Shown here piece by piece: positions 9,414 through 10,115 of a stretch of DNA of 32,000 nt. The translations under genes and the position numbers were made by a program. Source of the DNA: Candidatus Heimdallarchaeota archaeon (GTDB taxonomy: Archaea; Asgardarchaeota; Heimdallarchaeia; JABLTI01); contig JAUWKS010000020.1 in assembly GCA_030614005.1 (NCBI GenBank), positions 1-32,000 of the forward strand, given 5' to 3'. How positions within the stretch are numbered: the first letter of the stretch is position 1; every line of letters starts with the position of its first letter. The notes beneath the pieces were generated by a model, which had not been told where the DNA came from, made no database searches, and worked only from the letters and a program-made list of their open reading frames with translations.

Positions 9414-10115
9414 ATGGCTAATTGGTGGGAATACGTTCTTGCTTTATCTCCTTCAGTAGTAATCTTAGTCTTATATTTACTAAGTTACCTTTGGGGCAAA
9501 AAAAAGAACAAAAAATTTGCATTAGAAATGCTATCGAAAATAGCTGTCCCATTAAATGATTATTGTGAATCATTTGAAAAAGTTACTCAAGAAAAAGAAA
9601 GATACCAATTAGTTTGCCGACCAACCAAAGATGCTCCTATGAGAACGATGGTTGTTTTAGGAATCCCCCTTGGCAGACCATTTTTCATTGCTTTTATCTG
9701 GGACAAAATTAGAAAAAACAGAGACAAATATACTCTTTCAGCAAACTTGAGGAAAAGACCTCCATTTTCACTTGAAGTAGTTTCGAAGAAGCGAAAGAAA
9801 GTGCTGAAAGGTGATCAAGATTACTTTATGGAACTCAAAGAAGTATCTACAACAGGATTCCTCAATGAATATTTCATTATTAAAACAAACAATGTCAGGT
9901 CTGCAACGAAATTATTGTCAAATGAAAGTTTACTTAGGTTATTAGCAAAAACTAGAAATGATACTTTATGGCTCTCATTAAGACACGAAGTTAAAGAAGT
10001 TGGCATGCAATTTGAATCCATCTTCGAATATGAAGAAGAACAAATAGAGAATACTGTTGAATTATTTTTAAAAGTAATAGAAGCAATTCCATATCCTCGC
10101 AAAGGTAAATATTGA
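9414..10115 (+). CDS. Single-pass membrane protein resembling the core of CCDC47 (DUF1682, PAT complex subunit)
   Basis: N-terminal TM helix followed by YLWGKKKNKKFA, compared with NYIIGKNKNSRLA in CCDC47. The downstream pattern stays colinear: ERYQLVC ~ HIYNLWC, PLGRPF ~ FLKRQD, KNRDK ~ PVSDQ. Comparison from memory. Confidence 0.7.
   Translation: MANWWEYVLALSPSVVILVLYLLSYLWGKKKNKKFALEMLSKIAVPLNDYCESFEKVTQEKERYQLVCRPTKDAPMRTMVVLGIPLGRPFFIAFIWDKIRKNRDKYTLSANLRKRPPFSLEVVSKKRKKVLKGDQDYFMELKEVSTTGFLNEYFIIKTNNVRSATKLLSNESLLRLLAKTRNDTLWLSLRHEVKEVGMQFESIFEYEEEQIENTVELFLKVIEAIPYPRKGKY

Follow-up and report, generated by a model that had tools for sequence, protein, structure and literature searches.

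A homologue of eukaryotic CCDC47 in a Heimdallarchaeota archaeon and its possible link to the translocon

CCDC47 is a ribosome-bound subunit of the PAT complex that aids the building of multi-pass membrane proteins, and the positively charged coiled coil at its C-terminus reaches the ribosomal exit tunnel. Do archaea possess a relative of this protein? The question is raised by a small gene of Candidatus Heimdallarchaeota archaeon (assembly GCA_030614005.1) that is located within positions 1-32,000 (forward strand) of contig JAUWKS010000020.1, the stretch of 32,000 nucleotides analysed here and referred to as the window. Its coding sequence (positions 9414-10115, + strand), defined by a list of open reading frames (ORFs) and the corresponding translation, comprises 233 codons plus a TGA stop, and the initial annotation had read the product as an archaeal homologue of CCDC47. 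The ratio of nonsynonymous to synonymous substitution rates (dN/dS) is 0.05-0.14 relative to orthologues of the same genus, i.e. the ORF is a working gene under purifying selection. Based on the findings below we conclude that this gene is almost certainly a true homologue of eukaryotic CCDC47, and CCDC47 is clearly the nearest relative of the encoded protein by both sequence and structure.

The assignment is carried by a profile match and a structural match, the two comparisons by which the initial annotation had proposed to check its claim. The window protein matches the Pfam profile PF07946 (CCDC47, formerly DUF1682) with an E-value of 1.1e-7 and 31.8 bits, the curated gathering cutoff being 27.7 bits. 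As the best single stretch of this match covers only residues 15-58, i.e. the transmembrane helix and a basic patch, relatives were checked individually against the profile: 16 of 32 diverse family members match it (E <= 0.01), and in several of them, e.g. P0035 (residues 19-218 vs profile positions 7-227), the match is colinear across the whole domain. Many close relatives already carry precomputed PF07946 tags, and the best cluster match in the AlphaFold Database (AFDB) had been named automatically 'DUF1682 domain-containing protein'. The AlphaFold model of the window protein (22 homologues in the alignment; predicted local distance difference test (pLDDT) 75.9, predicted template modelling (pTM) score 0.73) contains the fold of the CCDC47 globular domain. 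In a Foldseek search of the PDB the top three matches of this model are CCDC47 chains of ribosome-bound translocons, i.e. 7TM3 chain 4 (E 5.8e-10, the lowest value obtained), 6W6L chain 7 and 9I78 chain 4, and in the Swiss-Prot section of AFDB the top 12 are all CCDC47 or its orthologues of yeast (YNR021W), fission yeast (SPAC2G5.01) or Arabidopsis (At5g49945), with template modelling scores by query of 0.63-0.69.

Comparisons with the sequences of the PDB weigh on the other side, as neither a profile of close relatives (A1, hmmsearch) nor the single sequence (phmmer) returned a CCDC47 match, and a wide family profile (A2) ranked CCDC47 first, at an E-value of 0.25. Together with the short best Pfam stretch, the failure of the close-Heimdall-relative profile to reach the solved CCDC47 chains would fit a spurious or convergent likeness, in which the Pfam match would be set off by a transmembrane helix together with a Lys-rich patch and the fold would be a common α/β arrangement; we regard this explanation as largely refuted and highly improbable. 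The weight that we give to the hidden Markov model (HMM) alignment with the solved rabbit CCDC47 chain (E = 0.25) comes from the Pfam and structure results, not from the alignment by itself. In this alignment the CCDC47 motifs that the initial annotation had named, i.e. YIIGKNKNSRLA, YNLWC, LKRQ, SDQ, LPDSLAILS, MVHFL, and IESVHF, each pair with their archaeal counterparts, and the seven motifs that it had quoted from the archaeal protein are all present and colinear, namely YLWGKKKNKKFA (residues 25-36), ERYQLVC (62-68), LGRP (86-89), RDK (103-105), LNEYFIIKT (150-158), LLRLL (173-177), and LWLSL (185-189). The exhaustive HMMER and word-indexed sequence searches had only archaeal-sized relatives among their returns.

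The encoded protein spans the membrane once, with the N-terminus on the outer side of the cell and a basic α/β domain on the cytoplasmic face. Hydropathy identifies one hydrophobic segment in the 233 residues, in line with the single helix that had been claimed for it: the best 19-residue window begins at residue 8, and the transmembrane helix comprises residues 8-27 (positions 9435-9494, + strand). The N-out, C-in topology follows from the charges on both sides of this helix, which amount to -1 for the 7 residues on the N-terminal side and to +5 for the Lys-rich C-terminal side. In the AlphaFold2 model residues 4-47 form one continuous helix, which includes the juxtamembrane basic motif G-KKKNKK-FA (residues 28-36, positions 9495-9521, + strand), recognized by its conservation in the family and by the HMM alignment to 7tm3_4. 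Gly28 and Asn32 of this motif are found in 97% and 82% of family members, respectively, and both are the same in mammalian CCDC47 (IGKNKN). The cytoplasmic α/β globular domain with the CCDC47 fold spans residues 48-224 (positions 9555-10085, + strand) and harbours two further residues that are shared with mammalian CCDC47, Arg88 (positions 9675-9677; 97% of the family) and Asp104 (positions 9723-9725; 91%). Overall the protein is basic, having an isoelectric point of 9.5 and a net charge at the 93rd percentile of comparably sized ORFs of its genome, a crude background. In an alignment of diverse family members the transmembrane helix and the globular domain are equally well conserved, and Pro13 and Tyr25 within the helix are each kept in 58% of these proteins, which mildly suggests that the helix may have a specific contact partner within the membrane.

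Compared with eukaryotic CCDC47 (yeast YNR021W), the single transmembrane helix, the cytoplasmic location of the bulk of the protein and the basic G-K-x-K-N juxtamembrane segment are common to both, whereas the archaeal protein has neither a signal peptide nor an acidic lumenal domain, lacks the C-terminal positively charged coiled coil and the latch helices, and has a domain that is smaller by ~70 residues, sequence identity being ~15%. It also differs in having no detectable Asterix partner and in belonging to a prokaryotic plasma membrane rather than to the endoplasmic reticulum (ER). The initial annotation was correct in stating that the acidic lumenal N-terminus and the long C-terminal helix are absent, since only 7 residues precede the transmembrane helix and the chain stops 9-10 residues past the last helix of the domain. 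This very short C-terminal end (..IPYPRKGKY; positions 10086-10112, + strand) was delimited by comparing the tails of the family at 20 loci, the same set of loci to which the neighbourhood survey below refers.

How widespread is this protein? Close relatives are 67-97% identical to the window protein and are all 'hypothetical proteins' of metagenome-assembled genomes which, bar one, are labelled Heimdallarchaeota or Asgard group, lineage names of relatives being source labels throughout. The one differing label belongs to P0006 (233 amino acids, 86% identity), which is listed as 'Candidatus Thorarchaeota archaeon', probably owing to an inconsistency in binning or labelling. An exhaustive HMMER search yielded ~30 more relatives of 200-300 residues with ~20% identity, whose labels include Hodarchaeales, Hermodarchaeota, Jordarchaeaceae, and Baldrarchaeota, and the labels of one sub-branch lie outside Asgard, i.e. 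Bathyarchaeia, Thermofilum, and Aenigmarchaeota. When 300 genomes of the phylum were sampled by a profile search at one sensitivity, 109 proved to contain the family, and blanks in these and the following counts are hence not proof of absence. In the window's own class the CCDC47-like family is near-universal, with matches in 67 of the 76 genomes sampled (family f1, 9/10; f2, 23/28; f3, 8/11; f4, 21/21; f5-f7, 6/6), while other large families are patchy or blank (f14, 0/68; f11, 6/76; f17, 1/19).

The family varies most visibly behind the globular domain. At the 20 loci, tails of 74-81 Lys/Arg/Glu-rich residues occur in f2, basic tails of 38-40 residues in f3, tails of 16-43 residues in f4 and of ~19-29 residues in other classes; within its class the window's genus stands out, having no basic tail or helix of the kind found in its sister families. 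In P0032 (302 amino acids), a long-tailed protein, the tail is predicted to form one long helix of 48 residues (residues 254-301, pLDDT above 90) that is colinear with the C-terminal coiled coil of CCDC47. This long-tailed group of paralogues or orthologues in the Heimdall class (P0032 and the f2 loci L039-L041 and L054) is ~23% identical to the window protein and shares with it the transmembrane helix, the motif, the domain and the archaeal class, but it carries a tail of 74-81 residues, predicted as a long helix, where proteins of the window's genus end ~10 residues past the domain. The description of the window protein as a 'minimal ancestral core' is thus not established: sister families have basic tails, and as the deep nodes of the gene tree are poorly resolved (Shimodaira-Hasegawa-like approximate likelihood ratio test, SH-aLRT, 27) and the most distant sub-branch has short-tailed members as well, the tree cannot decide between loss and gain of the tail. 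Many genomes of genus g7 in f4 encode two divergent CCDC47-like paralogues, e.g. at positions 1386427 and 3481526 of G255:C1 (L044 and L045), which differ in their tails (16 vs 43 residues) and in their gene neighbourhoods.

What might a CCDC47-like protein do in an archaeon? In eukaryotes CCDC47's globular domain touches H25 of the ribosomal RNA and the positively charged coiled coil is placed between Sec61 and H24 (PMC7505659), and CCDC47 also contacts TMCO1 (PMC9630114). By analogy with this eukaryotic domain, which is seated on the large ribosomal subunit, behind Sec61 and beside an insertase of the Oxa1 family, we propose that the archaeal protein may dock at membrane-bound ribosome-SecYE-β complexes and, once docked, may help newly made multi-pass membrane proteins, with Ylp1, the archaeal insertase of the TMCO1/EMC3 type (Oxa1 family), as a probable co-worker; the window protein would act via its globular domain and its transmembrane helix alone. 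Such a translocon-linked function appears plausible to us, our confidence in it stopping at or just short of even. It is favoured by the CCDC47-like topology, by the basic cytoplasmic domain and by a genome that encodes Ylp1, an EMC6-like protein and a homologue of ribophorin I. The search for TMCO1/EMC3 homologues that the initial annotation had recommended was rewarded, as a typical Ylp1 is encoded in the same genome (87 bits), and Ylp1 was found in 41 of 41 genomes of the class that were searched. A predicted complex of the window protein with its own Ylp1 scored 0.01, the mark being 0.32, a result that is not evidence either way. The EMC6-like protein (L058:1249-1926, + strand, i.e. on G000:C69) has 226 residues, an acidic N-terminus and a transmembrane hairpin rich in Gly. 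Its score equals the Pfam gathering cutoff for EMC6 (23.3 bits; 25.2 bits in the genome scan), and it may be an archaeal partner of the Oxa1-family insertase of the EMC6/GET2/OPTI type.

Several observations weigh against a function at the translocon. Binding of the archaeal protein to the ribosome, SecY or Ylp1 is something we infer from its eukaryotic relative, and eL6, which is contacted by the globular domain of eukaryotic CCDC47, is to our knowledge specific to eukaryotes. The form encoded in the window is devoid of the C-terminal helix that contacts the ribosome. The search for Asterix-like proteins, likewise recommended at the outset, came back empty: Asterix (WDR83OS, PF03669) has no match at E <= 10 in the window's own genome (90.4% complete), and 80 genomes of the class gave two sub-threshold matches only, both with internal stops, although a small divergent protein could escape the profile. 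TMEM147 and TRAP-alpha had no Pfam match either, but the positive controls were also blank, so these blanks say little. No translocon or ribosome gene is a conserved neighbour at the loci surveyed, the recurrent neighbours being genes for Nnr, KaiC-like ATPases and small GTPases. Finally, the family merges gradually with a broader group of prokaryotic proteins of this fold that includes DUF3137, TtfA, and CstY.

The last point raises the possibility, which we consider unlikely though not negligible, that the archaeal protein shares the fold superfamily but has another job, i.e. that it is an accessory subunit of a transporter or of some other membrane complex, like TtfA or CstY, and that the role at the translocon is an innovation of eukaryotes. 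TtfA, the mycobacterial trehalose monomycolate transport factor A, is needed for MmpL3-dependent lipid export in mycobacteria. The fold of its globular domain (PDB 6T84) is common to the window protein, but TtfA is a far weaker match than CCDC47, no sequence-profile link to it was found, and it is a protein of bacteria that is linked to MmpL3 lipid export; no MmpL3-type resistance-nodulation-division (RND) transporter adjoins the gene in the window, RND transporters not having been searched for as such. CstY, encoded in cstA-cstX-arsA clusters, is a protein of ~210 amino acids with a single transmembrane segment, and its co-evolution with CstA is described for five archaea (Castillo and Saier 2010, PMC2963123). 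The CstY/DUF3137 proteins (PF11335) resemble the window protein in their size of ~200-220 residues, in one N-terminal transmembrane helix and, according to AFDB matches, in their fold. However, the window protein has no PF11335 match at E <= 10, its genome contains neither a detectable cstA nor, at E <= 1, a DUF3137 (PF11335) gene, and CstA or ArsA neighbours, and with them the cstA-cstX-arsA context, occur at 0 of the 20 Asgard loci. The position of CCDC47 as nearest relative and the CCDC47-like basic C-terminal helix of the sister families also argue against a role of the TtfA or CstY kind. One member of the wider group, P0037 (221 amino acids, labelled Bathyarchaeia), matches both PF11335 (31.7 bits) and PF07946 (26.8 bits) over the same region, which suggests homology between the two Pfam families and a possible place for both in one clan.

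The gene neighbourhood gives rise to another alternative to a translocon-linked function. Directly upstream of the CCDC47-like gene, separated by a gap of 110 bp, lies a gene for a KaiC/RecA-type ATPase (positions 8638-9303, + strand; PF06745, E 5e-24), and on the other side a gene for the NAD(P)HX repair protein Nnr converges on it. In the survey Nnr adjoins the CCDC47-like gene in three families; the KaiC-like gene does so in two (f1 and f3), with both orientations seen in f3. A gene for a small GTPase of the Ras superfamily adjoins it in f2 (L039-L041 and L054), upstream and co-directional, and in f4 (L044, L046, and L055) two convergent small GTPase copies are located downstream, with E2-like and JAB/MPN proteins upstream. 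The archaeal protein might hence be pictured as a membrane-anchored scaffold for the KaiC-like ATPase that directly precedes it in f1 and f3, or for the GTPases, engaged in signalling or membrane dynamics and not in protein insertion. We deem this improbable, as no neighbour is kept across all families and the CCDC47 fold is without precedent for such a role. Moreover, small GTPases are very numerous in Asgard genomes, so that their adjacency could plausibly be due to chance, and the CCDC47-like gene seems to be transcribed from a promoter of its own. The latter is suggested by a by-eye reading of the upstream region, where a T-rich tract (~9323-9349) directly past the stop codon of the upstream gene is followed by a TATA-like element, TTTAAATA (positions 9374-9381, + strand), ~35 nt 5' of the ATG.

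Three genes upstream of the CCDC47-like gene, an ORF of 278 codons (positions 6879-7715, + strand) shows weak Pfam matches to the winged-helix regions of PCI, DDRGK, and E3_UFM1_ligase (E 3e-5 to 1e-3). Another part of the initial annotation had suggested a 'proto-ER gene cluster', an idea that we reject as regards a conserved unit on the basis of the survey over 20 loci, in which this DDRGK/UFL1-like gene accompanies the CCDC47-like gene within the genus only. A small gene with multiple transmembrane helices that recurs near the CCDC47-like gene was not found at these loci.

The distribution of the protein is of evolutionary relevance. Near-universal presence of a CCDC47 homologue in the archaeal class thought to be closest to eukaryotes would imply that a part of the multipass-translocon machinery predates eukaryogenesis. 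Taking this one step further, one may picture a seed of the multipass translocon in the Heimdall group, in which a CCDC47-like protein, equipped in some families with a basic helix reaching the ribosome, would work with Ylp1 and an EMC6/OPTI-like protein behind SecYE-β on membrane-bound ribosomes; CCDC47 would then have been inherited vertically from an Asgard ancestor, and eukaryotes would have added the lumenal domain and Asterix later. We regard this scenario as doubtful. In practical terms, the archaeal protein is small and tractable and may serve to probe the conserved core of CCDC47 in a form without lumenal domain, coiled coil or Asterix. Truncation of the ribosome-contacting helix of CCDC47 causes human disease, and the range of tails within a single class, from none to a basic helix of 80 residues, offers a natural test of the role of this helix.

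CCDC47 has been described as conserved across eukaryotes (PMC7505659), and the literature regards it as a protein of eukaryotes only. As Asgard eukaryotic signature proteins linked to the translocon, the main text and six supplements of Eme et al. 2023 (PMC10307638), the chief catalogue of such proteins, present subunits of OST and TRAP and no CCDC47. The literature that we searched contains no report of an archaeal CCDC47 and none that links CCDC47 with Asgard archaea, and in the CCDC47 literature searched the only mentions of archaea concern the Oxa1/TMCO1 lineage. The archaeal CCDC47 homologue is thus real and, within the literature searched, unpublished, yet detectable with standard tools.

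Two further observations concern Ylp1. At two f3 loci, L082 and L085 (G015:C11 and G036:C202), the Ylp1/DUF106 domain makes up the C-terminal third of an ORF of ~487 codons (query residues 27-179 vs ORF residues 311-477), which indicates a putative fused form of the Ylp1 insertase, and in f4 a Ylp1 match is found in ORFs of 436 codons. As to the occurrence of the CCDC47-like gene itself in public sequencing runs, no RNA run is listed as containing it, and the DNA runs that do are metagenomes from cold seeps and marine sediments.
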